This document shows positions 8,896 through 40,565 of a DNA stretch of 49,908 nucleotides, piece after piece. Position numbers and translations under genes: made by a program. The stretch is taken from positions 1-49,908 of the forward strand of contig JAKLES010000002.1 of NCBI GenBank assembly GCA_022711575.1. Direction: 5' to 3'. Source of the DNA: Deltaproteobacteria bacterium (GTDB taxonomy: Bacteria; Desulfobacterota; Syntrophia; Syntrophales; Smithellaceae). Below the pieces are notes generated by a model. That model had not been told where the DNA came from and did no database searches. It saw only the letters and a program-made list of their open reading frames with translations. The stretch's first letter is position 1. Every line of letters starts with the position of its first letter.

Positions 8896-8898
8896 ATC

Positions 8899-10086: not shown

Positions 10087-10140
10087 AAAAAAAAATTTTT
10101 TTTAGAGATTTTTTTGTTTTGTTTATTTTTTTGTTTTTAT
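10087..10140. other. A/T tract (A9T8 palindrome followed by T-runs), possible DNA-unwinding element
   Basis: The sequence is caaaaaaaaattttttttagagatttttttgttttgtttatttttttgtttttatttg. It lies in the divergent non-coding region next to the iteron-like repeats. Confidence 0.4.
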
Positions 10141-10187
10141 TTGTATAAGATAATGTCATATGTTTTTTTGGAGCCTAAAGCAAAAAA

Positions 10188-14811: not shown

Positions 14812-15545
14812 ACCCAAAACTAGCAAGACGCTTACGGGACGAAGGTGCTCTTGGAATAGCAAGAAAGTTCCTACAAGAGTCTAAGTTAGACTCCTTTATT
14901 GGATCTTCTCCAGCAGTAGCTAGGCTTAAAGAACGTGTAGAGAAACTGAGAGGAAGAAAAGAAAGTATCTTAATCCTCGGAGAAAGTGGAACAGGCAAAG
15001 AACTTATTGCACGTGCTTTGCACGAAGATAGTTTTGGTCCTTTTGTAGGTGTTAATCTTTCAGCTTTACCAGAAACCCTAGCTGAGAGTTTGTTATTTGG
15101 TTCAGTAAAGGGATCATTTACAGGAAGTAATGAGAACAAAATTGGTATGTTCCAGCAAGCAGGAAAAGGAACATTGTTTCTTGATGAACTTGCAGAGATA
15201 GAGGTGGGACTGCAAGTAAAATTACTTCGAGTATTACAAGAAAGGGAATACTACCCAGTAGGTTCAACAATATTAGAGAAGTTAGAATGTAGAATAATCT
15301 CCGCAACAAACAACACAACATTGAAAGGATTAAGACTAGACTTAATAGAAAGACTAGGAACATTTAGAATACATATTCCTCCGCTAAGAGAAAGGCTAGA
15401 AGATATAAAAGAAATAGCAGAAAGTTTCTTAGAAGAAGAACTCCCAGAGGAACTTATTGACAAATTAAAAAATTATAATTGGCCCGGAAACGTCCGTGAA
15501 TTACAGAACAAGTTATTAAATTGGAAAACATTTGGAGAGTTATGA
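14808..15545 (+). CDS. Sigma-54-interacting AAA+ activator (bacterial enhancer-binding protein central domain only)
   Basis: Full-length motif match to the NtrC/PspF central domain. Motifs seen: ILILGESGTGKELIARALH (Walker A), LLFGSVKGSFTGS (GAFTGA loop variant), GTLFLDELAEI (Walker B), LLRVLQEREYYPVGS, CRIISATN, IHIPPLRERLEDI and NWPGNVRELQN. It has no receiver or sensor domain and no C-terminal HTH. Confidence 0.85.
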   Translation: MNPKLARRLRDEGALGIARKFLQESKLDSFIGSSPAVARLKERVEKLRGRKESILILGESGTGKELIARALHEDSFGPFVGVNLSALPETLAESLLFGSVKGSFTGSNENKIGMFQQAGKGTLFLDELAEIEVGLQVKLLRVLQEREYYPVGSTILEKLECRIISATNNTTLKGLRLDLIERLGTFRIHIPPLRERLEDIKEIAESFLEEELPEELIDKLKNYNWPGNVRELQNKLLNWKTFGEL

Positions 15546-22786: not shown

Positions 22787-24046
22787 ATGAACATAACAGT
22801 CCCAAAGCAAGTAATTGAACTTGCAATTGAGAAGCAAGATATTGTTAATAATATTGTTAATGATGTAAAGTCTAAACTAACTTCTGGTGTTGAGGTAGGA
22901 CCAACAGAGAAGGTTATTAGTCCTGATATGTTTAGTAATGTTGAAGACTTTGATAAGTTCCTCCGAGAATGGCCAGGAGGACTTATTTTTATGCAAGCAG
23001 GAACATATATTACTACTGGTTATTCTAGCAATGAACCAGAAAAAGGATCTTACATTCCTCCAAGAACTGCCTTACAAGGAGAGCCTGGGACTTTCGTCCA
23101 ATTATGTCCTCCTAGCTATGCAACAACTGGTTTTTTGAGAGCATTAGGAAGTCCAGTTCATAGAAAGGATCTTTATGGTGGGAATTCTTCTGTAAAAGAT
23201 CTAGTAGTTTTATCATTACCAAGTATGCCAAACTTAGTAATTTCATCAGTCAACTTGTGTGGTCCTAATTGCGAAATTGAACGTGTAAGAGTTTGTAGTC
23301 AAAGTAATTTTTCTAATGACCAAGAATGTTTTCCAATCTCTATTTCAGACTTGCCAGATTATCCTTGTGATAATTGCAAGATTGAAGATTGTGTTTTTGA
23401 AGGGAACCTGGATAGTGATGGAAAACAATTCACAATAATGTCCATTGCTGGGCAATTTGCAAAAGCCAAGCGTTGTAAAATTAAGAATAATAGAGTTGTT
23501 GTTGGGAGTTTAACTATTGGATCTAGACCAAGCTATGGAAATGCTTTCACAATCTCAGGAGGAGAAGATTGTGTTATTGAGGATAATTTTCTTGATGGAT
23601 TTCTTATTGGAGTCTATCAAGACACTTGGCCTACAAATGGACTAGTTGTGCGAGGGAATGTTTTTAGAAATTGCCAGTCAGGAATTACTTTCCTAAATGA
23701 TAGTGAGAGTTTGTATAACTATGTTAAAGGTTATACTACGTGGAGAAATATTATGATTCAAAATAATATGATCCTCCTAAAAAACTCAAAAGTTGCAGAT
23801 GAAGACTGGCCGAATAGTGGGATTGTTCTTACTAACATGCGACCTCACAAACAAGGTTCAGCTATTATTGAGCCTTTTGAAAATTGTTTTGTGCAAGGTA
23901 ACTTTATTAATACTGTAAATCCTCCGGTGAAAGGAAAAGAAAACTGGGCAATTATAGCACATAACCATGAGGCAAAACCCCACAAGGGAGTTGTGGTTAC
24001 TGGGAATTGGTATAATAACATGCTAAGAATTTCACCTAATTTCTAG
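22787..24046 (+). CDS. Right-handed parallel beta-helix repeat protein (possible glycan hydrolase / lyase)
   Basis: 419 aa with repeated coil signatures: NCKIEDCVFEGN, GEDCVIEDNFLDG, VVRGNVFRNCQSGI and CFVQGNFIN. It is encoded in the early / replication arm, not with the virion genes. Confidence 0.55.
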   Translation: MNITVPKQVIELAIEKQDIVNNIVNDVKSKLTSGVEVGPTEKVISPDMFSNVEDFDKFLREWPGGLIFMQAGTYITTGYSSNEPEKGSYIPPRTALQGEPGTFVQLCPPSYATTGFLRALGSPVHRKDLYGGNSSVKDLVVLSLPSMPNLVISSVNLCGPNCEIERVRVCSQSNFSNDQECFPISISDLPDYPCDNCKIEDCVFEGNLDSDGKQFTIMSIAGQFAKAKRCKIKNNRVVVGSLTIGSRPSYGNAFTISGGEDCVIEDNFLDGFLIGVYQDTWPTNGLVVRGNVFRNCQSGITFLNDSESLYNYVKGYTTWRNIMIQNNMILLKNSKVADEDWPNSGIVLTNMRPHKQGSAIIEPFENCFVQGNFINTVNPPVKGKENWAIIAHNHEAKPHKGVVVTGNWYNNMLRISPNF

Positions 24047-24049
24047 CTT

Positions 24050-24238
24050 ATGGACCTGATAAGAATCCTAGACACAGTTATTAATCCAGACAAAATTCTA
24101 TCCTTCTATCTTGAAGATGAAAGAATTGAATTTGTTATGCTAGGAGGAGAGGAGATTTCTATTTCTCTTGATTCTGAGGAGGATGCAAAGACAGTTTTTG
24201 AAAATGTTTTAAATGCCTTAATAGCTAAAAACAATTAA
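24050..24238 (+). CDS. Hypothetical acidic protein
   Basis: 62-aa ORF. Confidence 0.45.
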   Translation: MDLIRILDTVINPDKILSFYLEDERIEFVMLGGEEISISLDSEEDAKTVFENVLNALIAKNN

Positions 24239-24243
24239 CAATT

Positions 24244-24337
24244 TTTCTCCCTCCTAACGACCTTCCTAAGATTACTCATCTTGTTGAATGATACATGTGG
24301 ACAGTCTTCAATACTCTTAGGAGGGAGAAACTTTTTT
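24244..24337 (+). terminator. Long hairpin with 14-bp outer inverted repeat followed by a T-run
   Basis: TTTCTCCCTCCTAA (24244-24257) pairs with TTAGGAGGGAGAAA (24317-24330). CTTTTTT follows. The architecture is similar to 21372-21447. Confidence 0.5.
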
Positions 24338-24344
24338 AAAACTT

Positions 24345-24548
24345 ATGGGAAAAACTTCTGCAAAATTTGGCCTCTGTGCTTGTGGTAATTCAACATCTTT
24401 GCGCAAGCGTCATGAGTGGATTTGTGAGAGATGTGACAAGTTAGAATCCAGACATTCAGATCATGGAGTAGAGGTAGTTAGGAGAATTAAACCTGATCTT
24501 AATGATTTTAGAGTAACACTTACAAACTTCCTCTCTTGTGCGAAATAA
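24345..24548 (+). CDS. Small zinc-ribbon protein
   Basis: 67 aa, with CACGNS .. CERCDK. Confidence 0.45.
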   Translation: MGKTSAKFGLCACGNSTSLRKRHEWICERCDKLESRHSDHGVEVVRRIKPDLNDFRVTLTNFLSCAK

Positions 24549-25983
24549 ACCCACAACCTCCTACTCAGGACTTACTATCCTCCTAGATAGACCCTCGCGG
24601 TTTGATAGGCAATATCTAATTTCTGCCTATGCAGGAAAAATCTTTGAAAGATTTATCTCTCCCTTAGACCGGAGGTCTATTGATATTCAAACTCTTGATA
24701 CTTTTCGAGAGTTCTATCCAGAAACTAAAGTTGTAATGTTGCTAGGAAAAGACTCCCTCGCGTTGTTTAAACAAGGAGTAACTTTACAACAACAAAGAGG
24801 CTCACCTTTTAAGATAGGTTCAAAAACTTTCCTGGCATCTTTCCCTCCTCAAGATTGTATTGATATAAAAAACTACGAAGATAGCTATTATGAAAATGAA
24901 ATCGAAGAAGACTGCACAAAAGACAGTGATGAAAAATCCACAAAAGGAGCAACCCCAAGAAGTGAATATGCTTTTTGGTTTGAGCGAGACTGCAAGAAAG
25001 CTTTGCGATACTTGCGAGAGGATCCAAAAATTATTGAGTTCAAAAAAGTTATCAACCCTCCAATTACAGACATTACACGAGCTTTGCTGGGACTACAAGG
25101 ATCTGAGTTGTTTCTTGATATCGAAACTGCGGACGACTTCAGACTCACTTGTATTGGACTTGGTTTCGACAATGTTATCTACACAATCCCAATCTCCAGA
25201 TATAGCCCACTTGAAATTACTCTTACAAGCAACCTCCAAGATACTGCAAACTTCCTCCGAGCACTTGCCGTTGCAATGGTCAGAAATTTAGTAGTAGTTC
25301 ACAATGCAATGTTTGATCTTTGGGTGCTTGCAAAATATTATAAAATCCCAGGAGGTAAGAATAACTTTGACACAATGATAGCACATCATAGGTGTTATCC
25401 AGGTGTTAGAAAATCCCTCGGGCATTGCTTGTCATTATATACTGACCAGCCATATCATAAAAACGAGGGTGTGTTTAATCCAAAAACCCCCGCACAAGAA
25501 AGGCAACTATGGGAGTATAATGCAAAAGACATTGAATCATTAATGATTTTAAAACCAGAAATCCTAAAACGCGCTAAGATACTTGGTGCTGAGAGGTCTA
25601 TTGAAATTGCTAATAGAATGATCAGACCTTATCTTACTATGACGCTCACTGGTATAGAACTTGCTGAGAACAAACTAGAAAGTGAGATAGCAAGTTTGCA
25701 AAAAGAGGATGTGCAAACTTTGAGGCTAATTAAATTGCTTGCTGGAAGCGAATTAAATCCTAATTCTCCTAAACAAATGAGAGAGTATTTGTTTGATGGA
25801 CTTGGGTATAAAGCGTTTAAGTTTTCGGAAAAAACTAAAGAAGCCTCGACAGGGATAGAAACTCTATTAAGATTACGTATTAAACATCCAGAAAACCATG
25901 TCTTAGGTTTGTGTTTAAAACGCCGAGGGATCGCAAAGAAACTTAGTATGATAGAAAGTTTGTATGCCAAAGAAACTACATAA
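24538..25983 (+). CDS. Family-A DNA polymerase, N-terminal fragment (unassigned N-domain + 3'-5' exonuclease + thumb start)
   Basis: Exo I is LFLDIETAD, Exo II is VVHNAMFDLWVL and Exo III is EYNAKDIESL. The C-terminal RRGIAKKLSMIESLY matches the K-L-x-S-T-Y region preceding the fingers. The ORF stops before the O-helix and palm motifs. The first ~110 aa loosely resemble a degenerate UDG-like fold (low confidence). Confidence 0.75.
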   Translation: MRNKPTTSYSGLTILLDRPSRFDRQYLISAYAGKIFERFISPLDRRSIDIQTLDTFREFYPETKVVMLLGKDSLALFKQGVTLQQQRGSPFKIGSKTFLASFPPQDCIDIKNYEDSYYENEIEEDCTKDSDEKSTKGATPRSEYAFWFERDCKKALRYLREDPKIIEFKKVINPPITDITRALLGLQGSELFLDIETADDFRLTCIGLGFDNVIYTIPISRYSPLEITLTSNLQDTANFLRALAVAMVRNLVVVHNAMFDLWVLAKYYKIPGGKNNFDTMIAHHRCYPGVRKSLGHCLSLYTDQPYHKNEGVFNPKTPAQERQLWEYNAKDIESLMILKPEILKRAKILGAERSIEIANRMIRPYLTMTLTGIELAENKLESEIASLQKEDVQTLRLIKLLAGSELNPNSPKQMREYLFDGLGYKAFKFSEKTKEASTGIETLLRLRIKHPENHVLGLCLKRRGIAKKLSMIESLYAKETT

Positions 25984-26089
25984 AGAACTGGTTAGGTCCG
26001 CCGCAAAAGCAGGACTTAAAGGAGCACAAAGGGATGCTTATGTTTATGGAACACTTGCAAAGATAGAAAAGAAGAAAGGAAAGAAATGA
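25964..26089 (+). CDS. Small basic protein (41 aa, below the track cutoff)
   Basis: Read by eye: MPKKLHKELVRSAAKAGLKGAQRDAYVYGTLAKIEKKKGKK. It overlaps the polymerase fragment stop, and its own stop overlaps the next ATG (ATGA at 26086). Confidence 0.35.
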   Translation: MPKKLHKELVRSAAKAGLKGAQRDAYVYGTLAKIEKKKGKK

Positions 26090-26301
26090 CCTCCGAGGAG
26101 TTTAATAAAGAAATAACAACGCTTATGGAAAAAGCTACAAAAGACCTTGGTCCTCATAAAGTAGCTAGTTGTTTGTCACAACACTTAGGAAATTACTTAT
26201 TTGCAATTAATAATCATTATGAAAACCTTAGTAAAGATCCTTCCAATAATACTGCTAACTCTAACTCTAACAGCACAAACTTCAGTGGTAAGAGTAGTTA
26301 A
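26086..26301 (+). CDS. Small protein with a Asn/Ser-rich C-terminus
   Basis: 71-aa ORF. The N-terminal 44 aa look coherent. The last ~27 aa overlap, in another frame, the signal-peptide coding region of the next gene. Confidence 0.4.
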   Translation: MTSEEFNKEITTLMEKATKDLGPHKVASCLSQHLGNYLFAINNHYENLSKDPSNNTANSNSNSTNFSGKSS

Positions 26302-26548
26302 ACTTATTTGGGATGCAAACCCTCCAGAGGAGAACATTCTTTACTATTCTGTAAAGTGGTCTTCAACATCTGGTGGACCTTACCTAACAGTTACAAATGT
26401 AACAACTACAAACGCAACAGTTATTTTAAAAGGAGGTAGGAATTTCTTCATTGTAACTGCTGTAAATAACTTTGCAGAAAGTGATCCCTCCGAGGAAGTA
26501 TATAGACACATTGCCCCAGGGCGAGTAAAGAACATAAAAGCACAATGA
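26219..26548 (+). CDS. Secreted fibronectin-type-III-like domain protein
   Basis: The signal peptide is MKTLVKILPIILLTLTLTAQT (start moved to the internal Met at 26219). KLIWDANPPEENILYYSVKWS..YLTVTNVTTTNATV..FFIVTAVNNFAESDPSEEV has an FN3-like strand pattern. Confidence 0.55.
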   Translation: MKTLVKILPIILLTLTLTAQTSVVRVVKLIWDANPPEENILYYSVKWSSTSGGPYLTVTNVTTTNATVILKGGRNFFIVTAVNNFAESDPSEEVYRHIAPGRVKNIKAQ

Positions 26549-27999
26549 AAATCCTCCTCATCAATCCATTCTATACTTCTAACTGTTCTACTAGATGGTA
26601 TCCTCCTGAGCCTCTTGGCTTATTATATCTCCGAGAATCTATAAGAGCTATTTATGGATCTAAAGTAACTGTCAAAATCCTCGATGCTCAGACAGAAGGT
26701 GGAGAAGAAATAAAAAGGACACCTAGTGGATATAGAAATGGAATGATTGATGGGGAGATTTTAGATTTCCTAGATAGCTATAAACCAGACATTGTTGGAA
26801 TTACCAACAACTACACATTTGGTGTAAAAGATGCAGTTGAAATTGCAAAACTTGTAAAACATTTTGGTAATCCTGTTGTTATCCTCGGAGGAGCTAATGC
26901 CACAATGGACCATGAGAGGCTTATAAAACTTCCCTGGTTTGATTATGTTGCTAGAGGCGAGGGAGAAGATTTGTTTGTTGAGTTTGTAAAAGGTTTTATT
27001 GATGGAGGAGTTGAAGATATTCTTGGGCTTACTACAAAAAACAAAATAAATCCTCCTAGAACATGTTTAGTTGATCTAAGTAAACTTCCAATCCCACGTA
27101 GAGATGAAATCCCTTTTGATTTGTATTCTAAATATTCAAAATATCCAATGTGCCCAAAGCAACGTCCAACTGCAACAATATCTTCTAGTAGAGGTTGTCC
27201 TTTTAGATGCACCTTCTGTTCTACTCAAGCTGTTTGGGGGAATAATTGGCGAGGGATGAGTGTAGAGAGGATGTTAAAAGAAGTAAGTTACTTACACAGC
27301 TTAAGAGTTAGAGAAGTTTATTTCTATGATGATCAACTTCTCAGAGATAAACTTAGAATTGAAGAATTTTGCCTCAAGTCTATTGAGTATTTTTCTGACA
27401 TGACATACTCTACCCCGGGAACTTCTCCTATGTTGATGTCTGAGGAACTTCTTGAACTTATGTCCCTCGCAGGATTTTATCGCTTGTGCTTTAGTGTTGA
27501 CGTAGGGACTGTGAAAGTTGCAAAACTAGTAAAGAAACCTGTGAAGCTTGAAAAAGTCCGAGGACTTGTAAAGAAAGCAAACACTCTTGGTATGTGGACT
27601 TGGGGAACATTTGTGATGGGATTCCCTCAGGAAACAAAAGAGGACATAAAGGAAATGATAACCTATGCTTCCTCGCTGGGATTTGATTTTGTAAACTTTT
27701 TTATGTTACAACTACATAAAGGGAGTGAGATATATAACAACCTAATAAGAAGCGGAGTTATTAAAGATGACTTGCATGGGTCAAATAGTATGGATTATCC
27801 TCTCTGTCCCTCGGAGCATTTATCCCAACAAGAGCTAATTGCTTTGCATAAAGAGGCTGAGAAAACATTTTATAAACAAGTAGCAAGGAGAGTTTTTAGC
27901 TCAAGTTTTATAAAAGAACTATGGCCAAAAATCAACACGTGGACAAAATTTAAATATGGAGTAAAACTATTATGGAATCTAATAAAGATGAAAATATAA
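26545..27999 (+). CDS. Radical SAM enzyme with N-terminal B12-binding-like domain (class B type)
   Basis: The CxxxCxxC cluster is SSSRGCPFRCTFCS. The N-terminal Rossmann-like region is KILLINPF..PPEPLGLLYL..DIVGITNNYT..VVILGGANAT, as in cobalamin-dependent radical SAM proteins. Length is 484 aa. Confidence 0.75.
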   Translation: MKILLINPFYTSNCSTRWYPPEPLGLLYLRESIRAIYGSKVTVKILDAQTEGGEEIKRTPSGYRNGMIDGEILDFLDSYKPDIVGITNNYTFGVKDAVEIAKLVKHFGNPVVILGGANATMDHERLIKLPWFDYVARGEGEDLFVEFVKGFIDGGVEDILGLTTKNKINPPRTCLVDLSKLPIPRRDEIPFDLYSKYSKYPMCPKQRPTATISSSRGCPFRCTFCSTQAVWGNNWRGMSVERMLKEVSYLHSLRVREVYFYDDQLLRDKLRIEEFCLKSIEYFSDMTYSTPGTSPMLMSEELLELMSLAGFYRLCFSVDVGTVKVAKLVKKPVKLEKVRGLVKKANTLGMWTWGTFVMGFPQETKEDIKEMITYASSLGFDFVNFFMLQLHKGSEIYNNLIRSGVIKDDLHGSNSMDYPLCPSEHLSQQELIALHKEAEKTFYKQVARRVFSSSFIKELWPKINTWTKFKYGVKLLWNLIKMKI

Positions 28000-28226
28000 G
28001 ATGCTTTCAATGCTCCAACATTGGCGTGACGATGGATGAGAACATCCGGCTTGAAGAAAAAACCAATATTGATGGCTCAAAATACTGGTGCGCCAAGCAG
28101 GACATCGGAACATTGTTTGGTTCTAAGGTCCACGGTGAATGCTCTGGAATAGGGAGGACTAAAGAGCAAGCTTTGGAGAGATTAAAAGAAGATATTAAAA
28201 AACTTGGAGAAAGCTTGTGGTATTAA
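27972..28226 (+). CDS. Hypothetical protein
   Basis: 84-aa ORF overlapping the radical SAM 3' end. An internal Met at 28032 is an alternative start. Confidence 0.4.
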   Translation: MESNKDENIRCFQCSNIGVTMDENIRLEEKTNIDGSKYWCAKQDIGTLFGSKVHGECSGIGRTKEQALERLKEDIKKLGESLWY

Positions 28227-28252
28227 TATGGAGTAAAATTATTAGCTAAGAG

Positions 28253-29248
28253 ATGAAAACCACCACCACCTACTCAATCGCTGGTCCTGATACATTTAGA
28301 CTAGCTTCTAGGAAGTGTCCAGATGGTTCAGGAACAAACATGCAAAATTGGGATAAGGATGTTAGGTCTCTAGTTATTCCCTCCGAGGGAAAGATCCTAG
28401 GCCAATCTGATCAGTCTGGAGCAGAAGCTAAGATTGTAGCATATCTGTGTCGGAAAGGAAACTTCAGAGCATTGTTTGATAACAACATAAAACCTCATGT
28501 TTATGTTGCAATGCAGTTGTTTCAAGAGAAGTGGAAATCTTATTGCGAGGGAGTTTCTAGGCTTTGCTGTTTAAAAATCCAAGACTTAAAACAAGATCCA
28601 GAATTCAAACCTCTGGAGAAACTAATTAAAGAGTCTGACAACTGGCCTCCTAGTAAGCGTTATTACTACATGGCAAAGCAAGTATGTCATGAGACAAATT
28701 ACAAAATAGGCAAAAATGAATTTGTCTCAAACACATTAAAGAAATCCGAGGGAGCAATTGTTTTAAAACCAGAAACAGCACAAGAGTTTTTAGACTTTTA
28801 CTATAAGTTATTCCCTGAAATTCTTGAATGGCATAGAGCAATTGAGAACCAAGTCCGAACAACAATGTTGTTGAAAAATTTGTTTGGACACCCTCGTAAG
28901 TTTACTGGACTTTTCCGTCCTGACTTGCTTAAAAAAGCCCTCGCATTTATTCCACAATCCACTATTGGAATGATTACAAATATTGCAATAGTAGAATTGC
29001 AAGAACGAATAGATAATGGAGAACTCCCTGGACTTGACTTGCTACAAAATGGTCATGATAGTATTTTGTGGCAATGTTATATTGGGGATGAAAAAGACAT
29101 GGCTGTTGAGGTAGCTAAACATCTAAACAGAAAACTTCTGTCTCCTCGCGGGGAACCATTTTCTATGTCTAGTGAAGTTGCTGTTGGATATAATTGGAAA
29201 CCCGCTAGTGAGAAAAACCCAGAAGGACTAAAAGAAATTATACTATGA
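28253..29248 (+). CDS. Family-A DNA polymerase, C-terminal fragment (fingers / palm)
   Basis: TFRLASR..GTNMQNW corresponds to TGRLSS..PNLQNIP. Motif A is ILGQSDQSGAEAKIVAYL (D-x-S-x-x-E). Motif B is YYMAKQVCHETNYKIG (K..N-Y-G). Motif C is LLQNGHDSILWQC (H-D-E/S). Confidence 0.75.
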   Translation: MKTTTTYSIAGPDTFRLASRKCPDGSGTNMQNWDKDVRSLVIPSEGKILGQSDQSGAEAKIVAYLCRKGNFRALFDNNIKPHVYVAMQLFQEKWKSYCEGVSRLCCLKIQDLKQDPEFKPLEKLIKESDNWPPSKRYYYMAKQVCHETNYKIGKNEFVSNTLKKSEGAIVLKPETAQEFLDFYYKLFPEILEWHRAIENQVRTTMLLKNLFGHPRKFTGLFRPDLLKKALAFIPQSTIGMITNIAIVELQERIDNGELPGLDLLQNGHDSILWQCYIGDEKDMAVEVAKHLNRKLLSPRGEPFSMSSEVAVGYNWKPASEKNPEGLKEIIL

Positions 29249-30459
29249 CCAACCTTGAACACTGGAGAAACTACCTCCGGGACTTGGAATCCCCACTTCC
29301 TCTTATTGATTGGCCTTTATACTTTGCAGTTGCAGCATCTCTTGAAAGACGTGTTTGGTTTGGATCTTCAAAAGGTTTTGAGATATTTCCAAACATTTAT
29401 GTTATTGTTGTAGGAGGACCATCAGTAGGAAAGTCCCTCCCAATGTCAAGAGCAGTAAGTATGTTGGAAAAACTCCAAGCAGTAAAAGGAGGAACATTGC
29501 AAAGTGCTTTAACCATTGCACCTGACAGTGTTACTCTTGAGAGGCTTACACAAATTCTTGCTTCTTGTGGAGATAGTAAGATTTTAAAAAATCCAGATGG
29601 CACAATCAAAAGAATCCCACATAGTTCTATCTCTATTGCCTCCGAGGATCTAGCAGTTTTGTTTCGTAAAAACACTGAGGATCTTGTGAGATTTTTTGTT
29701 CAAGGATATGATGCTCGTAACTATAGAAGGGAAACCAAAAACCAAGGAAAGGATCTAATTACAAATATTTGCATTTCCTTTTACGGTTGCACACAGCCAG
29801 AATTTATCTCCTCCCAAGACGCCTCTTTAATAATTGGACAAGGCTTTGGTTCGAGAGTTATATTTCTATGGGGAGAAGATAAAAGATTTCGAAAAGCCAA
29901 GATAGAAATAGATAAAGAACAAGAGCAAGACTACGAGGCAGTTAAAGCACATTTACAAAAACTTACAGAACTTTGTGGAGAAGTTAAGTTTTCTTCTGAG
30001 GCAGAAGAATTCTTTGTTTATTGGTATGAAAAAGACTTCGATAGAACAGTAGTAAATTCAAATAAAAAACTTGAAGCCTACTATGGGAGGAAAAAACTCC
30101 ATGTTAGAAAACTTGCAATGATCTTACATTTCTTAGATAATTTTGAGTTTGAGGTTCAAAAATCCTCCGTAGAAAAAGCTCTAAAACTTCTCTGTAGTGC
30201 AGAAATCGAAATGCACAAAGCATTATGTGCAACTTCTAAAAATGTCCTCGCAACAATCTCAGAAAAAATCCTAGAATGCCTAGCAAAAAATGGCCGAGAA
30301 ATGTCTATAAAAAGAATCCGCCTAGCCATGTTTGACCAAGCGGATGTTGAACAGCAAGATAAGTGTTTGGAATTCTTAAAACAAACCGGGCAGATAAAAA
30401 TTATCGAGTCAAAGATTCTACTGCTCGGGGAGCAACATAACGAGTCCGGAACTTCTTAG
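29245..30459 (+). CDS. P-loop NTPase (possible replicative helicase or primase-associated ATPase)
   Basis: 404 aa with Walker A VIVVGGPSVGKS. It is the last gene of the replication arm. Its 3' end overlaps the convergent 1519-aa gene by 59 nt. Confidence 0.5.
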   Translation: MTNLEHWRNYLRDLESPLPLIDWPLYFAVAASLERRVWFGSSKGFEIFPNIYVIVVGGPSVGKSLPMSRAVSMLEKLQAVKGGTLQSALTIAPDSVTLERLTQILASCGDSKILKNPDGTIKRIPHSSISIASEDLAVLFRKNTEDLVRFFVQGYDARNYRRETKNQGKDLITNICISFYGCTQPEFISSQDASLIIGQGFGSRVIFLWGEDKRFRKAKIEIDKEQEQDYEAVKAHLQKLTELCGEVKFSSEAEEFFVYWYEKDFDRTVVNSNKKLEAYYGRKKLHVRKLAMILHFLDNFEFEVQKSSVEKALKLLCSAEIEMHKALCATSKNVLATISEKILECLAKNGREMSIKRIRLAMFDQADVEQQDKCLEFLKQTGQIKIIESKILLLGEQHNESGTS

Positions 30460-33400
30460 ATTCAATAGCATTGCTATAAGCTTTATTTAGCCTGTCTAGC
30501 ATTTCTGGATTAGTTTTTCCTAGATAGTTTGTAAGTCTCCTATACTCAAGCGTATCTCTTGCTGGGCCTGGGACATTTTCCATCTTCATTAGGTTTTCAT
30601 AACCTTTTGCTTTTTGCTGTATATCTTTAGACTCTCTCTCAACTTTCTCAATCATCGCATCAAGAAGTTCTCCAGCAGTTTTTAAATCCCCTCTCTCCAA
30701 AGCTTCCCTTACACGTTTTGGAAATATACTACCTGGAACCATTGGGGAGCGAGTAATTTTTTCTCCAGTAGTTAGGTTAAAATCTCTAATTGCCTGGTCT
30801 AGTTGCTCTCGCCTAATTCTTTCTTCATTTAAAAATTCTGGAAAACTAGGTGCCCATTGCCTCCGAAGATAATTAAGTGTTTGCATATTCTGAGGGCCAA
30901 CATTTCCAAGATATTCTTTTGCAACCTCCAGAGGAGGAACTCCCTCAAAAAGATCCTGCATAGCCCTAACACTATCTCCAGCAATATTACCATAGATTTG
31001 AACATGAGGAATATTTATCCCTTGCAATCTCTGCTTTGTAGCTACGTCTATAATAGCTTTTGTGGCATCTCCTGCGATGCCTCCAATTCCTCCCACAGCA
31101 AAATAAGCTAGGAGGGTTTTTGACAAGGCAGCAACTTTAGTAGGATCATTAAGTGTGTTATTTACCTTTTCCTCTAATGTGTCTCCCTCTGAGCTTTGGA
31201 AAATACTAGTAATTGTAGGAAGTCCAGTAAAGTTTTTTCTAAACATTAAACTTCTAACAGTAGCAGCAGCTCCTCCTCCTAGAATTCCAAGAGCTAAAAT
31301 CTTTGGAACTTCTGAAACTCCCCTAGACTTAATAACATCTAATGTGTCTTGAGTTTGAGCTATTGCCCATTTAGCAAGCACGAGAAAATTTGCTCTAAGT
31401 CCTCCGTGTTTTAACATCCACTTAGGTTGTCCTGTTGGGCCATAATCTCCTTGAACAGACTTAAACAATCTATAAAGTGCAAGCTTGTCTTCTTCTGGAG
31501 TTAACTTTTCTACATTATTAACTCCAAGTTCTTTCATAAACTTTTGTGACCAGCTATCTCCTGCGAGGGCTTTTGCTTTTTGTGAAGCATATAGAAGTTT
31601 TGCAGCAGAATAATTATATGTTCTACCTGCATATTCCATAAACTCAGAAAAAGACAATTTACCAATCATCTTTGTTGTATTGTAAATAAGTTCATTTACA
31701 TCAACAGATGCTATTGATAAGTCTTTTAGATTTTTAATCCCAGCATCTTTAAGCATTACTTTTGCACTTCGGAGGATTGGACTTTTCTTAATAAATCCAG
31801 CTTTTGCAGCCTCTCTAAAATCCTCAAACACTCTGCCAGTTAAAGCGCTGTCAATAACATCTTTAAGATGACTTCCAACAAAACTCAATGGTGCTCGTTT
31901 GTAGAATAAAAATGGACCAGTAACAAGATTCCCTGCTCCTGTTCCAATTTGCAGCATTATTGACTTAGCTATTCCCCTAGCCCCTCGGTCTAGCCAATCG
32001 TCTTGAAAATTAACATTCGCAATATATTCAAGAATTGGTTTTAAGTCTGAGGTATTTGACAAGTCTTTTACAAGTTCTCCATTCTCCCAGGTAGTCCTAA
32101 CATCTTGTTTTGGATTCCAGGGATCTTTAAGCAGTCCTACAATATTTCTTGCCTTAGGATCACTTTCAACTAAGTCAAAGAAATTTCTATCCGCAGCCCA
32201 TCTCCTAGAAAATCTCTCAAAAGCCCGGTCAAAATTAGGCTCTGCAAATTCAATAGGAATTCCATCCCCCTCGGGTTTTCTTGTAGGACCATACCGGAGG
32301 TTTTGAACAGTCTTACCTAGATTTCCAGCAGCAGAGTATTTTTCAACAATAGCTTTTCTTACAACATTCTCATCAACATCTGGATGGTTTTGTTTTGTAA
32401 ACTCTACAAGTTTATTTAAAATCTGTTCTGCCTCTGGACTAGATGGATAATCTCGGAGGGTCTTAGCCACACTTGCCTCCATAGGCAAAGGATAATAAAA
32501 TGGATCTATCCCAGCCTCTCTAGCAACTCCATTATCTATCACAGGTTGCTTTGCGGCTATGCGGTCTTCTTGAAGTTTTCTTAAAATAGTCCTAATCTCA
32601 TTATATGCTTTAAGCATTTTTGGAGTGAAATCTGTCTTAGGCAAATATGCTTGTTTTAGCCTTTCATTTTGAAAATGCCTGTGGAGTTTCATCATGTCAG
32701 AAAAACTCCCTGCTTTGTGGATAGTATCTTTAAGTCTGTTTGCTATCCCCTCTCCGTCAAGCTCAGTTTTCTCTATAAGCTTTGTAATCCTAGGAGCAAT
32801 ATACTGACCCTCTCTGCCATGCTCAGGTTTTTTTAAAGCTTCTGTAGAAACAGTAAACCCAGGAAGTGCTCTTGCTCTAGGCTTATCTCCAAGAGCAGGA
32901 GCTTCAATCTCATCTAAGGCTTTTGGCTGCTTTGCAATTACATTAAGTTTGCTATCTATCTCATCAACATTCTCAACAACCTCATCAAGAACTTTCCTAG
33001 ATAATGCTTTCTTGTAGTCATTAACTGAAGCATCACCAAATCTGGCTTTTAGTCCTGCATAAATATCCTCCGCGAAAGCCTTTGTGCGAGGAAACCACGA
33101 ACCTACTTTTGAACGCAGCTCTAGGATCTTTGCTACTCTCTCTCCAACAAGTTGGATAAGTTTCTCATTAGCATCGTCTCCTCCCAGGGAAGCTTCCATC
33201 TTAGCAACAAAGTCAGGATCTTTAGCCCTCATGCGCTCAGTTACTAAGTGTCCTACTTCATGTGGAAGCGTGTCACTTGTGGCAGCCTGGGGATTGTAAT
33301 CTATCTCCTCTGTAGCAGTTTGAACCCTGCCTCTGAAGTCCTCCCCTGGAGTAATGTTGACCTTCTTTACTCCATGCTGACCTGCAAGGCCAAGCTCTTG

Positions 33401-34960
33401 GGTTGTAAGAGGACGTTCTACTGGAGTTGGTGAAACATCTCCAACCACATCAATTGGTTGTCTTTTTTGGGAAGCTTTTATTATATTAGGATAACGATCT
33501 GGATAAGTTCTCAAAAGGTGTAGAGCATAGTTTACAGCACCTTGCCTAACTTTATCTGCTCTTATCGTTTTTACCTCTGGATAAACACTAGAAAATTTCT
33601 CAAGGTAGCTCAGGAAATACAAATCATTTTGTTGCGAGAGTCTCCCAGGTGTATAACCTTCGTTTCTTCCATAGACTTTTTCTGCATGTTCTAACCAATC
33701 TTTTGCAGCATCATAAGCAAATTGTTCTTCGGCTTCTTTTTGTTTAGCAGAGATTCTACTGTAAAGTGTCTTCCCCTCCTGAGCAAGTTCGGCAGAACTT
33801 TTAAGCTCTGTGCTAGGTTTGTCTTGGTAAACTTCTGGAAGTTTCTCAATATCAGGTTTAAAACTAGGATCAGCAGGAGGACTTTTATCTGGCAAAAATA
33901 CAGGCTTTGCTCCCTCGCCAGTTTCAATATTAGCTTTAGCTTCTTCTGGAGGCTTAGGAACCCCAATAGGCTCCTCATAACCGTAAAGTCTTTTAAGCCT
34001 CTGGAATTCTGCTTCCATATGGCCTTCAAATTCTGGCTCAGAAGCTTTTTGCTTTATAGCTTCCTCTGCACTAATTGGAGCCATAGCTTTTTTCCTAACA
34101 CTTGCTTCTTTCTTGCTAGGAGGAGTTAATTCAAGTTCTCGAAGTTTCTTATAATCTGGTATAATCTCTCCTCGTTTTCCTTCAGTAGGTTTAAATTCTA
34201 GTTTTCCACTAGCAGCCTTCTCGTAAGTTTTAACAACCTCTTTAGGACTAGGTTTTTCTACTACCTCCGGAGCAGTAATTTTCTGCTCTGTGGGTTGGAA
34301 CATTTTATTTATACCCTTACTTATAAATGGAACTCGTTTAGTCCATCCGCGAGGGTCATTAAAAGGAATTCCTCCTAATGCTGCAATGCCAACTCTGGAG
34401 GGATCAACTTTTCCCTCAGAAGCAACCTCTGCTCCTGTTTCAACTCCAGCACTAACAGCAGACCCAGTAGCAACTGCTTTTAATGCAGACTTTTCTGCGG
34501 TAGTTAAAGCTGGTCTTAGTGCTTTTGGAGCACCAGAAAACAAAAGTTTCTTACTTGCTTCTAAAGCCCTCATTGTAGTAGGGCCAGACATTTTTAATGT
34601 AGGTAAGTTTCCTGCAATACTTCCAGCTAAAGCCGCTTTTGGATTTTGTGCCCTGCCTTGCTCAGAAGCTTTTTGAATACTTTCTGGGAGTGACTTTCTA
34701 AACAAATAATCATAGCCAAAACCTAAACCCATACTTGCTAATACTGCCCAGCCTACGGGAGTTCCAGCAGAAACTAACGCAGCCCCAGTTCCTAAAGCTC
34801 CAACAGATGCAGGAATAGATAATGCCGTCTCCCTAACCCCAGTAACAATAGGATTCTCAGTAACGGTAGGACTTTTATTGTCATCTACTCCTTTTATTTT
34901 AGGAGGAGACAAAGAAGGATCTTCTGGTTTATCTAGCTCCTTAAACATCAACTTACTCAT
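30401..34960 (-). CDS. Giant virion-associated protein (putative internal / ejection protein) with Gly/Ala-rich TM-like segments and an HExxH motif
   Basis: At 1519 aa it is the last gene of the late arm. The N-terminal hydrophobic stretch is GALGTGAALVSAGTPVGWAVLASMGLGFG, and the zincin-like motif is TLPHEVGHLVTE. Size and position resemble podovirus internal core proteins. Confidence 0.55.
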   Translation of the reverse strand: MSKLMFKELDKPEDPSLSPPKIKGVDDNKSPTVTENPIVTGVRETALSIPASVGALGTGAALVSAGTPVGWAVLASMGLGFGYDYLFRKSLPESIQKASEQGRAQNPKAALAGSIAGNLPTLKMSGPTTMRALEASKKLLFSGAPKALRPALTTAEKSALKAVATGSAVSAGVETGAEVASEGKVDPSRVGIAALGGIPFNDPRGWTKRVPFISKGINKMFQPTEQKITAPEVVEKPSPKEVVKTYEKAASGKLEFKPTEGKRGEIIPDYKKLRELELTPPSKKEASVRKKAMAPISAEEAIKQKASEPEFEGHMEAEFQRLKRLYGYEEPIGVPKPPEEAKANIETGEGAKPVFLPDKSPPADPSFKPDIEKLPEVYQDKPSTELKSSAELAQEGKTLYSRISAKQKEAEEQFAYDAAKDWLEHAEKVYGRNEGYTPGRLSQQNDLYFLSYLEKFSSVYPEVKTIRADKVRQGAVNYALHLLRTYPDRYPNIIKASQKRQPIDVVGDVSPTPVERPLTTQELGLAGQHGVKKVNITPGEDFRGRVQTATEEIDYNPQAATSDTLPHEVGHLVTERMRAKDPDFVAKMEASLGGDDANEKLIQLVGERVAKILELRSKVGSWFPRTKAFAEDIYAGLKARFGDASVNDYKKALSRKVLDEVVENVDEIDSKLNVIAKQPKALDEIEAPALGDKPRARALPGFTVSTEALKKPEHGREGQYIAPRITKLIEKTELDGEGIANRLKDTIHKAGSFSDMMKLHRHFQNERLKQAYLPKTDFTPKMLKAYNEIRTILRKLQEDRIAAKQPVIDNGVAREAGIDPFYYPLPMEASVAKTLRDYPSSPEAEQILNKLVEFTKQNHPDVDENVVRKAIVEKYSAAGNLGKTVQNLRYGPTRKPEGDGIPIEFAEPNFDRAFERFSRRWAADRNFFDLVESDPKARNIVGLLKDPWNPKQDVRTTWENGELVKDLSNTSDLKPILEYIANVNFQDDWLDRGARGIAKSIMLQIGTGAGNLVTGPFLFYKRAPLSFVGSHLKDVIDSALTGRVFEDFREAAKAGFIKKSPILRSAKVMLKDAGIKNLKDLSIASVDVNELIYNTTKMIGKLSFSEFMEYAGRTYNYSAAKLLYASQKAKALAGDSWSQKFMKELGVNNVEKLTPEEDKLALYRLFKSVQGDYGPTGQPKWMLKHGGLRANFLVLAKWAIAQTQDTLDVIKSRGVSEVPKILALGILGGGAAATVRSLMFRKNFTGLPTITSIFQSSEGDTLEEKVNNTLNDPTKVAALSKTLLAYFAVGGIGGIAGDATKAIIDVATKQRLQGINIPHVQIYGNIAGDSVRAMQDLFEGVPPLEVAKEYLGNVGPQNMQTLNYLRRQWAPSFPEFLNEERIRREQLDQAIRDFNLTTGEKITRSPMVPGSIFPKRVREALERGDLKTAGELLDAMIEKVERESKDIQQKAKGYENLMKMENVPGPARDTLEYRRLTNYLGKTNPEMLDRLNKAYSNAIESKKFRTRYVAPRAVESLTR

Positions 34961-36051
34961 TTTATTCCTCCAGTAATAAAAGCTTCATATCTCCTAAGTA
35001 ACTCAGAAATATACCTAGGGTCTAGTATTTTTACTGTATCTGGATGGGCTAAGATTTCCTGAACTTCTTGTAAAGAAAGACTATCAACTTCCCTGCCTCC
35101 ATATTTTGATCTAAGATCAACAGGTTTAGTTCCAGTATTAAATCCTCCGCTTTCATCTCCAGATCCAATAAGTTGATTTAGGGTTATTGGAGGTTTCTGA
35201 GGAGCCTTTATCACATTTACTGGTTCTCCCGGGGCTTTAATCTGAGACATACCCCCATAATAAGAAGTAGGAAATGTTCCAGCAAGTGCAGCATTTCCAG
35301 CTCTTGAGGCATTTTCCCAAATTGCCCTAGGTCTTTCAAATTCCTGTGCAATTTTTGCAGCCTCCTCCGCAGAGTTTGCCTTAGCAATACTAGCACGTTC
35401 TTCAAAAGGACTAACTCTCATCTGACTTTCAAGTTCTTGAGTTCTCCTAGAAGCTTCCAGAGGAGCTAAAGCTTGGTCATTTAATGCTTTTTCTCTCTTG
35501 GCAATATCTCCTTGTGTTTGAGCTTCATAAGCAGCACGATATTGATTTTCTAACTCTGCTCTATGCGCGGGATTTTGTTGCCATCCAAGTTTCATCCCAG
35601 CAGTATCCGCAGCAAGATCAGACTCAGCAATGTTTTGTTTTGCTCCAGAAAGCTTAGACTGAACACTACTGGTTATTAAGTTTGGAGTTACTTTTTGTAA
35701 ATGCCCTGCTAAGTTTTTAAGCTCTTGCCTATACATAGCAACATTCTCATCTGTAGGAGCCAGATTGTAGTTTGTTGCTATGAAAGACTTCATAGCAGTA
35801 TCATCAGTTAAAAGCTTTCCAACATATTTTTCAACCAAAGCATTGTTAGACCTAGTTGCTTCAAGATCAATATTATACTTATTCCTAAGTTGCTCTTGGA
35901 GTTGGTTTAGTTTATACTGTTGATTTAACCTGTCAGCAGTAAACTTATTCTGACCTCCTCCGAGGACTTCATCCCAAAACTTACTTCCAGACCTTTTATA
36001 AGGCATGTAGTTTGGATCAGATATATCACCAGCAACAAATTGAACAGGCAT
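34957..36051 (-). CDS. Virion-module protein (possible internal protein)
   Basis: 364-aa ORF, helical and Gln/Ala-rich, coupled to its neighbours. Confidence 0.5.
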   Translation of the reverse strand: MPVQFVAGDISDPNYMPYKRSGSKFWDEVLGGGQNKFTADRLNQQYKLNQLQEQLRNKYNIDLEATRSNNALVEKYVGKLLTDDTAMKSFIATNYNLAPTDENVAMYRQELKNLAGHLQKVTPNLITSSVQSKLSGAKQNIAESDLAADTAGMKLGWQQNPAHRAELENQYRAAYEAQTQGDIAKREKALNDQALAPLEASRRTQELESQMRVSPFEERASIAKANSAEEAAKIAQEFERPRAIWENASRAGNAALAGTFPTSYYGGMSQIKAPGEPVNVIKAPQKPPITLNQLIGSGDESGGFNTGTKPVDLRSKYGGREVDSLSLQEVQEILAHPDTVKILDPRYISELLRRYEAFITGGIK

Positions 36052-36054
36052 ATG

Positions 36055-37254
36055 TTATCCTTTGAAAAATTTTACCCCACCAAATTTACCAATAATATTC
36101 CACAAAGCAAACCAGAACTCCTTAACAGGTTTATAAACCCAACCATGTTTGAATCCCGGAATTCCACAATAATATCCACCATAAGTAGAAAGAGGCTTAA
36201 CCATAAAACTATTTACTAACCACCTAGCAAGTTTATACTTTCTCATAAGTGGCACTAGATAGTTAGAAGTAATAACATACCCATTGCGTTTTTGCATAGT
36301 GTAAAACTTATCTCTACAATATCTAACAAACCAAGGAAGTTTTCCATTGTAAGATTCTAGGAAAATAAAACAACATCCAAGCCCAGCTCCTCCGGCCCTA
36401 GAATAAGATATATCACCCATCCCAGGGATAAAATTCTGCCACCAATTACCTTGATTCATCTTAGCAATATCCGCTTGTGTCTGACTTTGGTTTAAGTTAG
36501 ACATGTAGTTCATAAAGTTGCCTGTAAGCTGGGTAGCATCAGAAAAATCAGGCTGTGAAATACCTGTAAACTTACCCTCGCCGGGGTTAATGCTAGGTCT
36601 TCCAAGTGCAGTTTGAACAGGATCAAGTCCATATCTCATCGAGGGCATTGATTGAGTAGCTAATCCGAGGGCTTGTCCAAAAGCTTGTTGGTTTTCAAGT
36701 TCTCGTTGTCTTTGTGCATTTCCATAAGTCATCGCACTTCCAACAACATTAATAGGAGCAGGAGATGTTCCTACTCCAAGTCTTTCCATCTGTTGGTTTG
36801 TTGCTCGCTCTATTTGAGATTGTTCTCCAGCACTTAGTTGGCCACTAAGATCAATAGAGCCAATTAGTTTTTGCAAGCCCTCATTAACTGTCGCGCGGGT
36901 TTGGAAAAATTCTGGATCAAGAGTTTTGGATGTTTCTAGCGCAGTAGCGATAAGGTCTTTACCTGGACCTTGCAAAACCTCTAAGTCAGTAAGGCTATCT
37001 GCAAGTCTGTTATCACTAATTATATCCCTCCCAATAGCATTTAACTTTGGAGCATAAGCACTGTAAAGCTCCTCCATTAAAGCTGCATATTTGGGAGAAA
37101 ATTCAGCGGACTTACCATAACGTAAGTCTTCCATTTTTCCAGCAAGATCAAGCTCTGCTTTTACATACTCTGGAAGCAGAGTTTTAATCATGCTTACTTG
37201 CTCTGAGGCTGAAAGCCCCGGGCAACCTCCACTATCTTTTCCACCACTACCCAT
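36055..37254 (-). CDS. Virion-module protein with a Cys/aromatic-rich C-terminal domain
   Basis: 399-aa ORF. The C-terminus reads GCCFIFLESYNGKLPWFVRYCRDKFY..LVPLMRK.. Confidence 0.5.
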   Translation of the reverse strand: MGSGGKDSGGCPGLSASEQVSMIKTLLPEYVKAELDLAGKMEDLRYGKSAEFSPKYAALMEELYSAYAPKLNAIGRDIISDNRLADSLTDLEVLQGPGKDLIATALETSKTLDPEFFQTRATVNEGLQKLIGSIDLSGQLSAGEQSQIERATNQQMERLGVGTSPAPINVVGSAMTYGNAQRQRELENQQAFGQALGLATQSMPSMRYGLDPVQTALGRPSINPGEGKFTGISQPDFSDATQLTGNFMNYMSNLNQSQTQADIAKMNQGNWWQNFIPGMGDISYSRAGGAGLGCCFIFLESYNGKLPWFVRYCRDKFYTMQKRNGYVITSNYLVPLMRKYKLARWLVNSFMVKPLSTYGGYYCGIPGFKHGWVYKPVKEFWFALWNIIGKFGGVKFFKG

Positions 37255-37259
37255 AATTT

Positions 37260-37622
37260 TTATTCTCCTATGAAGAAGTTAATAAGTCGCTCACTAGGAG
37301 TTATAGTCCGAAATTTATCATGTCTTTGCACTAAAAGTTTCCATCCAGTAAATCGTTGCTTGTAAATCTCAAAAGCTTTTTTCATGCACTCTGCGCAGCA
37401 AGCAGGATGACAAAGGATGTTCTTGACCCAAACAGCTTTTTGACACTCATAAGCTTTTAGCAACATTATCCCAACTGGTTTGTTGCCATTAGTAAAAACA
37501 ACCAACCCACAATCTTCTAGTCCTTCCTTTATCAAACCCAAAATATCAGCTCTGCTACAGCCTGGAAAAGCTTTCCCTCGCGGGACACTTTCTACAAAAT
37601 CCACAACGTCACCTATTGTCAT
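37260..37622 (-). CDS. Hypothetical protein
   Basis: 120-aa ORF with an ATGA-type overlap with the upstream gene. Confidence 0.5.
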   Translation of the reverse strand: MTIGDVVDFVESVPRGKAFPGCSRADILGLIKEGLEDCGLVVFTNGNKPVGIMLLKAYECQKAVWVKNILCHPACCAECMKKAFEIYKQRFTGWKLLVQRHDKFRTITPSERLINFFIGE

Positions 37623-37945
37623 GACAAAACTCCTGAGTTTTTAAGCACGGCTATTAAAATCTCAAGTCTGGCATTTAGATAGTCTATCTGAGTTCTAAAA
37701 TTGTCTGTCATTGCTTTTGATGCAACAAACACGCTATCCCCATCAGTGGTAGTAATATTATAACAAGGAGCTGCTGTTTCTGGGGGAAAACTTGCTACTG
37801 CAATTGCTCCTTTGTAAACTACCCCTGGGGTAGTAGATGTCGCATCTGGAACAGTTAGACTTTCTCTCCAATTATTCGCAGCCGCCATGTCTGCAAACAA
37901 AACATTTGGATCTGTAAATTCGTTGCTAGAAACATTAACTGACAT
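37619..37945 (-). CDS. Hypothetical virion-module protein
   Basis: 108-aa ORF. Confidence 0.5.
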   Translation of the reverse strand: MSVNVSSNEFTDPNVLFADMAAANNWRESLTVPDATSTTPGVVYKGAIAVASFPPETAAPCYNITTTDGDSVFVASKAMTDNFRTQIDYLNARLEILIAVLKNSGVLS

Positions 37946-40564: not shown

Positions 40565-40565
40565 A

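Follow-up and report, generated by a model that had tools for sequence, protein, structure and literature searches.

A 49,908-nucleotide (nt) stretch of phage DNA (positions 1 to 49,908 of contig JAKLES010000002.1, assembly GCA_022711575.1; hereafter the window) carries what we read as a 2.27-kb composite accessory island. It separates the two genes that encode a family-A DNA polymerase whose split is ancestral. Central to the island is a gene for a 484-amino-acid (aa), cobalamin (B12)-binding, class-B radical S-adenosylmethionine (SAM) enzyme whose close homologues lie in glycan biosynthesis and tailoring clusters. We infer its substrate, its chemistry and its biological benefit, and with moderate confidence read it as an acquired glycan-tailoring enzyme acting on a host envelope-glycan precursor.

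The class of the enzyme is established by motif, profile and fold. The protein contains the motif C218-PFR-C222-TF-C225, whose cysteines are invariant across 50 homologues, and matches Pfam Radical_SAM (PF04055; E=1e-20, 75 bits against a threshold of 29.5) and B12-binding (PF02310; 1.1e-11, 45.1 bits against 32.1). An AlphaFold model (AF2) built from 50 homologues has a mean predicted local distance difference test score (pLDDT) of 93.8. Foldseek searches with this model returned high-confidence matches solely to class-B radical SAM enzymes, namely MgmA (the top match), AprD4, TsrM, OxsB, CysS and TokK, with E between 1e-16 and 1e-22, identities of 16-18% and, for AprD4, a template modelling score of about 0.7. 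Pfam, the model and Foldseek agree with a sequence-only reading of the window, which had called the protein a B12-type radical SAM enzyme with a CPFRCTFC motif. The class-B fold is no guarantee of methyltransferase chemistry, as AprD4, a paromamine 1,2-diol dehydratase, illustrates.

In comparisons with family-level profiles, none of the NCBIfam equivalog cut-offs was reached. The best score was to the Sden_1168 P-methyltransferase family (NF038361, 169 bits against a cut-off of 575), with lower ones to HpnJ (TIGR03471, 119 against 578), BchE (TIGR02026, 108 against 481) and a lipid B12-radical SAM family (78 bits). Partial matches of this kind would fit an enzyme that modifies a lipid, a cofactor or another small molecule of the hopanoid, tetrapyrrole or phosphonate type and so alters host metabolism during infection. 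We regard this role as improbable: all scores fall far below the equivalog cut-offs, and hopanoid, tetrapyrrole and phosphonate (PepM) genes are absent from the sampled neighborhoods of the close homologues.

The closest relatives in a collection of 5.8 billion proteins are all metagenomic and share 40-46% identity with the window enzyme over 95-100% coverage. Genomic context was looked up for eight close homologues (P0001, P0002, P0003, P0004, P0006, P0007, P0013 and P0016), and all except P0007 lie in glycan biosynthesis or tailoring clusters. The neighboring genes in these clusters encode GT2, GT4 and GT-C glycosyltransferases, nucleoside diphosphate-sugar epimerases and dehydratases, Polysacc_synt flippases, STT3 oligosaccharyltransferase with Alg13/14-like genes, carbamoyltransferases, FkbM-type methyltransferases and B12-radical SAM paralogues. 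Furthermore, a class-I SAM methyltransferase stands beside the radical SAM gene almost always in the seven clusters. P0007 is located on another phage-like contig and is surrounded by small, mostly unannotated genes.

The same kind of neighborhood recurs at greater distance. The 121 neighbor open reading frames (ORFs) of 14 more distant genome loci include 15 B12-radical SAM enzymes (21 radical SAM proteins in total), 5 GT2, 5 class-I methyltransferases, 3 YfhO, 3 PMT_2 and 2 epimerases. When IMG/VR was scanned with the enzyme as a single sequence no match was found; with the alignment, at least 427 stretches were found to encode B12-binding radical SAM relatives. The neighbors at 16 IMG/VR loci include 8 GT2, 7 GDP-mannose-dehydratase/epimerase, 5 Polysacc_synt_2, 3 DegT and 6 methyltransferase genes, with phage portal genes alongside. 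The glycan neighborhoods are consistent across four independent locus samples. In L111, the best viral relative at 39% identity, the gene directly upstream encodes a class-I methyltransferase, and a primase-helicase is encoded downstream.

Many relatives among the IMG/VR loci L111-L190 are found in sugar-nucleotide and glycosyltransferase islands beside phage portal genes. Unless a part of these contigs is cellular in origin, this would apparently be a common set of viral genes. A class-I methyltransferase is adjacent or fused to members of the clade repeatedly (P0033, P0035 and P0073; L001-L007, L016, L106, L107 and L111). By analogy, the pairing suggests a two-enzyme logic, for instance O-methylation followed by radical extension of the methyl group, the latter being CysS-type chemistry.

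These contexts bear on an earlier proposal. The sequence-only reading had suggested that the enzyme, together with the neighboring small ORFs, could be a peptide-modification system; in such a scheme, akin to those for peptides that ribosomes make and that are modified after translation (RiPPs), the substrate would be the 41-, 71- or 84-aa product of the island or its FN3-like protein before export. The small ORFs do flank the enzyme gene, the FN3 and radical SAM genes share an ATGA overlap, some class-B radical SAM enzymes act on peptides or proteins, and the top Foldseek match, MgmA, is a protein methylase. There are also weak matches to ApyD (NF050148, 115.5 bits) and rSAM_ocin_1 (TIGR03975, 70 bits), but these fall far below the RiPP cut-offs of 750 and 281.85 bits. 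Pfam shows only the B12-binding and Radical_SAM domains and no RRE/PqqD-like peptide-recognition domain, and the 84-aa gene was inserted separately and comes from a family of its own. The close homologues reside in glycan clusters, a pathway unrelated to the small ORFs, and not in RiPP clusters, which is the outcome that the sequence-only reading had itself named as speaking against its proposal. Across about 100 loci, the other phage copies (L005 and L111) among them, no homologue has the 41-aa, 71-aa, FN3 or 84-aa protein encoded nearby. Because the close homologues sit in glycan clusters and the small ORFs are never beside them, the RiPP reading is unsupported; peptide modification is the least supported of the specific proposals, and we consider it very unlikely.

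In a neighbor-joining tree, the window enzyme forms a long branch sister to the glycan-cluster clade (P0001-P0017). It groups apart from the other phage copy, which suggests that the phage copies were captured independently. Most likely, the enzyme was acquired horizontally from a cellular clade of glycan biosynthesis and tailoring clusters. Of the 79 positions with a family-wide conservation of 80% or more, it retains 70, the three cysteines among them. Its departures include H118N, P390L, T371M and R238M, at positions that are 84-98% conserved; residue 118 lies in the GGAHAT motif of the B12 domain, which reads GGANAT in the phage enzyme and has His in 47 of 49 homologues (96%).

Such a profile could also be that of a decaying passenger, recently captured, without function for the phage and drifting toward loss. 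The long branch and the four substitutions just listed would fit, as would the loss of the methyltransferase partner and the remodeling of the 3′ end by an insertion. The 484-codon ORF is nonetheless intact, with its cluster cysteines and most conserved positions kept; an identical protein sequence is found on 16 assembled contigs, the codon usage fits the phage, and the fold is predicted with confidence. In a diverged strain, L110, the first 167 codons are open and show 7 nonsynonymous (mostly conservative) and 6 synonymous changes. The nonsynonymous excess of a dead gene is seen neither in the radical SAM gene nor in the mature FN3 part, in a strain comparison that rests on this one variant (962 nt, 97% identical) and on substitutions too few for significance. 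On these grounds the gene looks functional but diverged, and decay is a decidedly unlikely explanation.

The sequence-only reading had described a cassette inserted in a polymerase gene. The cassette does lie between the polymerase halves; the two-gene arrangement, however, is conserved in relatives, whose gaps have other, shorter contents. The N-terminal half, polN, matches Pfam DNA_pol_A_exo1 (2.1e-7) and positions 6-91 of the DNA_pol_A profile, and the C-terminal half, polC, matches DNA_pol_A (5.7e-13). The two matches abut on a single profile, phrog_17, at positions 566-949 and 972-1242.

Scans of IMG/VR and JGI metagenomes with both halves yielded four relatives: L008, L019, L021 and L023. 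PolN is 33-41% identical to separate N-half ORFs in all four, and polC shares 37-51% identity with the stand-alone C-half ORFs of L008, L021 and L023. In all three relatives with both halves on one contig, polN and polC are separate ORFs with the same break point. The polN ORF of L019 has the same end point and is followed by an unrelated 89-aa ORF, after which the contig stops before any polC. The gap holds a 73-aa ORF in L021, a 54-aa ORF in L023, and ORFs of 131 aa and 63 aa in L008. The gap ORFs of the relatives show no similarity to one another or to the ORFs of the window, whose gap carries the largest load among the relatives compared. Since the break is the same and the gap ORFs differ, the two-gene polymerase is ancestral to the phage group and was not broken by the cassette, and the gap is a variable cargo site. 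The term insertion is therefore misleading for the cassette.

An intein or trans-splicing event joining the halves was considered and rejected, as the tail of polN and the head of polC are too short and lack intein features. Similarly, Pfam, PHROGs and NCBIfam searches with the five ORFs detected no intein and no endonuclease domain. In the shortest gaps, a single ORF fills the space exactly and overlaps both halves (L021 5183-5404, 73 aa; L023 8580-8744, 54 aa). The 41-aa ORF of the window overlaps polN in the same way; sequence similarity to these gap ORFs was looked for and not found. Two further observations concern the relatives. The polC of L008 (6654-8516, IMGVR_UViG_3300035670_000398) has an extra, intein-sized segment of about 300 aa (residues 148-450) at a conserved polymerase motif (YYMAKQVCH / ANYG), which is absent from the window, L021 and L023. 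In L023, a 158-aa HNH/AP2-like putative homing endonuclease, recognized by eye from its sequence, is encoded at 9841-10317, with polC on one side and the primase gene on the other. In this phage group, mobile elements seem to be drawn to the polymerase region.

The layout of the locus is given in Table 1. All five ORFs stand on the plus strand at 25964-28226, as the sequence-only reading had listed them.

Table 1. Features of the cargo site and its two boundaries, in window coordinates.
Feature	Position	Strand	Role or basis
polN, DNA polymerase A N-terminal half (3′-5′ exonuclease and start of polymerase domain)	24538..25983	+	Upstream boundary of cargo site
41-aa strongly basic, lysine-rich ORF	25964..26089	+	ORF listing, codon usage
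71-aa ORF with Asn/Ser-rich tail	26086..26301	+	ORF listing, codon usage
109-aa predicted exported FN3-like protein	26219..26548 (ORF opens 26201)	+	PDB, Pfam and PHROGs matches
484-aa class-B radical SAM enzyme	26545..27999	+	Pfam, AF2 model, Foldseek
Direct repeat copy 1, 20 nt, AATATGGAGTAAAACTATTA, in the 3′ end of the radical SAM gene	27953..27972	+	Repeat comparison
84-aa ORF, small phage-protein family	27972..28226	+	Homology
Direct repeat copy 2 (19/20)	28225..28244	+	Repeat comparison
polC, DNA polymerase A C-terminal half (palm/fingers)	28253..29248	+	Downstream boundary of cargo site

The genes are tightly packed. The end of polN and the 41-aa ORF have 20 nt in common, the stop of the 41-aa ORF lies in the same ATGA (26086-26089) as the start of the 71-aa ORF, and a second ATGA (26545-26548) holds the FN3 stop and the radical SAM start; the 84-aa ORF starts 28 nt upstream of the radical SAM stop. 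A DUF3987 primase/helicase gene (Pfam) comes after polC. Promoter-like and terminator-like matches in the region show no excess over shuffled sequence, and an Rfam scan of 24000-29500 found no intron and no other RNA family. Given this packing and these null results, the simplest reading is that the cassette belongs to the replication transcription unit and would be co-transcribed with the replication genes. Codon-usage likelihoods give coding support to the 41-aa, 71-aa, FN3 and radical SAM ORFs and are low for the 84-aa ORF.

This position raises the question of whether the substrate could be nucleic acid, the second possibility in the sequence-only reading. The enzyme would then modify phage DNA, a deoxynucleoside triphosphate or a nucleotide-sugar precursor as an anti-restriction hypermodification expressed with the polymerase. 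The gene does lie between the two halves of the polymerase, its translation was ancestrally coupled to that of polC, and the L111 copy, with its methyltransferase directly upstream, adjoins a primase-helicase. The L005 copy is found among small, mostly unannotated genes, and OxsB, a structural neighbor in the Foldseek results, acts on a deoxynucleotide. A radical SAM enzyme is also known in thymidine hypermodification, although not one of class B (PMC8989533). The replication-module position thus speaks for this alternative, and other evidence speaks against it. Among the window ORFs that were scanned, no companion gene for DNA modification (hydroxymethyluracil or hydroxymethylcytosine synthesis, DNA kinases, aGPT-Pplase, DNA glycosyltransferases) was detected, and the cellular and most viral homologues lie in glycan clusters, not beside replication or restriction genes. 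Furthermore, relatives with the same polymerase lack the radical SAM gene, which is therefore not part of the replication machinery. A DNA or nucleotide substrate is, on balance, unlikely, and it is rather improbable that phage DNA, or a sugar attached to it, receives from the enzyme a hypermodification made by radical chemistry, such as a carbon-bound methyl group. If it did, DNA hypermodification would have its first cobalamin-type radical SAM enzyme, with L111 as a second instance.

The evidence favors the remaining alternative of the sequence-only reading, a substrate in the cell envelope, through the glycan context of the homologues. In an infected anaerobic, cobalamin-containing host, the enzyme would cleave SAM reductively and use radical chemistry to modify a sugar in a precursor of the envelope glycan, either nucleotide-activated or lipid-linked; the likeliest reaction would be the methylation of an unactivated carbon. 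The outcome would be an altered host surface glycan, and, if serotype-converting phage genes are a guide, the phage might plausibly gain by masking receptors or by excluding superinfecting phages. The co-translated FN3 protein, predicted to be exported, is plausibly envelope-active too.

Several points weigh against this glycan-tailoring role. The substrate assignment comes by inference, and the neighbor counts behind it are descriptive, without a genome-wide background comparison. Glycosyltransferase and sugar-nucleotide genes were not found among the scanned window ORFs, so the enzyme would need host-made intermediates. The window enzyme is a long branch that deviates at nine of the 79 conserved positions, including H118N, and its function may therefore be shifted or weakened. 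It also stands without the class-I methyltransferase partner that is usual in cellular contexts and present in the viral locus L111. The window and L111 copies are located in a replication module and the L005 copy among small, apparently early, mostly unannotated genes, a placement equally typical of DNA-modification genes. Finally, an integrase was not found among the scanned window ORFs (many small ORFs fell outside the scan), so classical lysogenic conversion is unsupported.

For the FN3-like protein, the likeliest start codon is the ATG at 26219, which gives 109 aa and is also the one chosen in independent gene calls. Counted from this ATG, the overlap with the 71-aa ORF is 83 nt, close to the roughly 80 nt noted from the sequence. 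The signal peptide noted there agrees with a signal-like N-terminus, MKTLVKILPIILLTLTLTA followed by QT; the region at about 26219-26275 resembles a typical signal peptide or membrane anchor. The Pfam fn3 match (E=0.0056, 17.3 bits) lies under the 25-bit threshold, and the match to the FN3 region of phrog_31 reaches 4.6e-5. The mature part matches PDB 3mpc, an 'Fn3-like protein', at 5e-7, 5g56 at 1e-5 and RPTP FN3 domains at 5e-4; the best solved FN3 relatives come from bacterial carbohydrate-active proteins. A homologue search returned only P0121, a 94% identical strain variant, and the AF2 model, computed from two near-identical sequences, is uninformative (pLDDT 41). In L110, the mature frame is open with 3 nonsynonymous and 3 synonymous changes. 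By its sequence features, the 109-aa protein is a predicted exported FN3 domain.

The 84-aa gene has a history of its own. Its family has 57 cluster representatives at E<=1e-3, with members of 75-110 aa that share a conserved core, GIGxTxExALERL...ESLW. Members occur on other phage-like contigs that have no radical SAM gene in the vicinity. A PDB profile search with the family gave no match, and the 84-aa ORF has no similarity to the Cys-rich 101-aa ORF upstream of the L005 radical SAM gene. Its codon usage is the least phage-like of the five, and coding is confirmed by homology. The ORF is bracketed exactly by a direct repeat, AATATGGAGTAAAA[C/T]TATTA, 19/20 identical. Copy 1 provides a GGAG ahead of the 84-aa start. 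Copy 2, read in the radical SAM frame, continues as YGVKLLAKR* to a TGA at 28254-28256 that overlaps the polC ATG at 28253. A 272-bp deletion therefore restores an overlap of the radical SAM stop with the polC start.

The repeat, the restored overlap, the odd codon usage and a family independent of the radical SAM gene together argue for a later, separate insertion of the 84-aa gene. The 272-bp unit has the look of a discrete insertion, one that took the place of the final radical SAM codons and abolished the stop/start overlap with polC; this indicates a composite cassette, with the 84-aa gene as a secondary insertion in the radical SAM 3′ end. At least two acquisitions would have built the island. 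The first would have brought the FN3 and radical SAM genes as a pair joined by their ATGA overlap, with the radical SAM stop originally overlapping the polC start likewise. The second would have placed the 272-bp segment into the radical SAM 3′ end, leaving the 20-nt direct repeat.

Two of the ORFs, those of 41 aa and 71 aa, are orphans. The 41-aa product, described from the sequence as basic, has a net charge of +10. Its codon-usage log-likelihood ratio of 0.225 is in the in-frame range and far above out-of-frame pieces, and no homologue was found in Pfam, PHROGs, NCBIfam, PADLOC, GenBank phages or the collected loci. The 71-aa ORF has a coding-like ratio of 0.197, is called by only some gene callers and likewise has no homologue in Pfam, PHROGs, NCBIfam, GenBank phages or the collected loci. 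Its tail is Asn/Ser-rich as claimed (SNNTANSNSNSTNFSGKSS) and corresponds to an alternative frame of the FN3 signal-peptide coding region. In L110 the ORF is open, with 5 nonsynonymous and 2 synonymous changes. On account of the missing homologues and this 5:2 ratio, it is the least certain gene of the five.

Several known systems resemble parts of the locus. GenK, GenD1, AprD4 and HpnJ share with the window enzyme an N-terminal Rossmann B12-binding domain and a CxxxCxxC radical SAM barrel, and the carbohydrate substrates of GenK-, GenD1- and AprD4-type enzymes match the glycan-cluster context of its homologues. GenK and GenD1 are gentamicin C-methyltransferases (PMC4340712, PMC5819394, PMC4039129). 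The products of these four enzymes, in contrast, are secondary metabolites or hopanoids and not cell-surface glycans, and none of the four is phage-encoded. The clade P0001-P0017 is closer: its members are 40-46% identical to the window enzyme from end to end and share its domain layout and conserved motifs. The window enzyme itself has no glycosyltransferase, sugar-nucleotide or methyltransferase gene beside it and lies in a replication operon.

Serotype-converting gtr/oac and 'moron' loci are similar in that a non-essential gene occupies a variable slot of a conserved phage module. The window can further be likened to gtr/oac loci in its predicted host-glycan change and its neighboring, putatively exported protein. 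The gtr/oac systems employ glycosyltransferases or acetyltransferases and are carried by temperate phages, whereas in the window the enzyme would be an oxygen-sensitive B12-type radical enzyme, and no integrase was found among the scanned ORFs. The interrupted polymerase genes of T7-like and SPO1-like phages also present a family-A polymerase in two pieces with foreign DNA between them. The gap of the window differs in carrying metabolic or accessory cargo in place of intron RNA, intein or homing endonuclease, and its halves, unlike those of intron and intein cases, are stable separate genes across the clade.

Class-B radical SAM genes are nearly absent from isolated phages. A tblastn search of INPHARED with the enzyme returned nothing at E<=1e-5 and, at E<=10, only partial matches of 20-28% identity, for example in Streptomyces phage SF3; PADLOC gave only a generic 37-bit radical SAM match. 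BFVD has class-B radical SAM entries. To our knowledge, no phage-encoded B12-dependent radical SAM enzyme has been characterized. Such genes have been noticed in viral metagenomes (PMC9723712), and our literature search found no characterized member of the clade and mentions of B12-radical SAM genes in viruses only in passing.

The window enzyme is a new, divergent member of a widespread glycan-associated clade, and the island is an ordinary accessory locus in an unusual place. B12-dependent radical SAM enzymes catalyze chemically difficult alkylations, and through this locus a phage copy is connected with a large clade, as yet unstudied, whose genes lie in the surface-glycan clusters of uncultivated bacteria and archaea. 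The compact phage gene is possibly a tractable handle on the function of this clade. If the glycan-tailoring role is correct, the phage toolkit for surface change extends past glycosyl- and acetyl-transferases. The locus also illustrates how the gap of a stably split polymerase can act as a cargo site: accessory genes collect there step by step and are expressed together with the replication genes.

The remainder of the window gives some view of the phage lineage, which is very divergent from described phages. The INPHARED set of GenBank phages has no DNA match to 24000-30500, and the loci L009-L012 are 100% identical to the window. No tRNA genes were found. Eighteen large minus-strand ORFs were scanned (1-10000 and 30401-49586, including products of 1519 aa and 1424 aa), with no Pfam match and one PHROG match; these large proteins are presumably structural. 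Just upstream of the polymerase genes, a 419-aa plus-strand ORF at 22787-24046 shows a weak right-handed beta-helix (DUF1565, E=0.06) and no other match, and a replication-gene block is an unusual place for such a depolymerase-like fold. At 14808-15545, also on the plus strand, a 245-aa protein consists of a sigma-54 activator AAA+ domain alone (Sigma54_activat, 1.6e-46; PADLOC RtcR_PspF2, 2.6e-66), with no receiver or DNA-binding domain detected. From this domain content, the protein may redirect host sigma-54 transcription.

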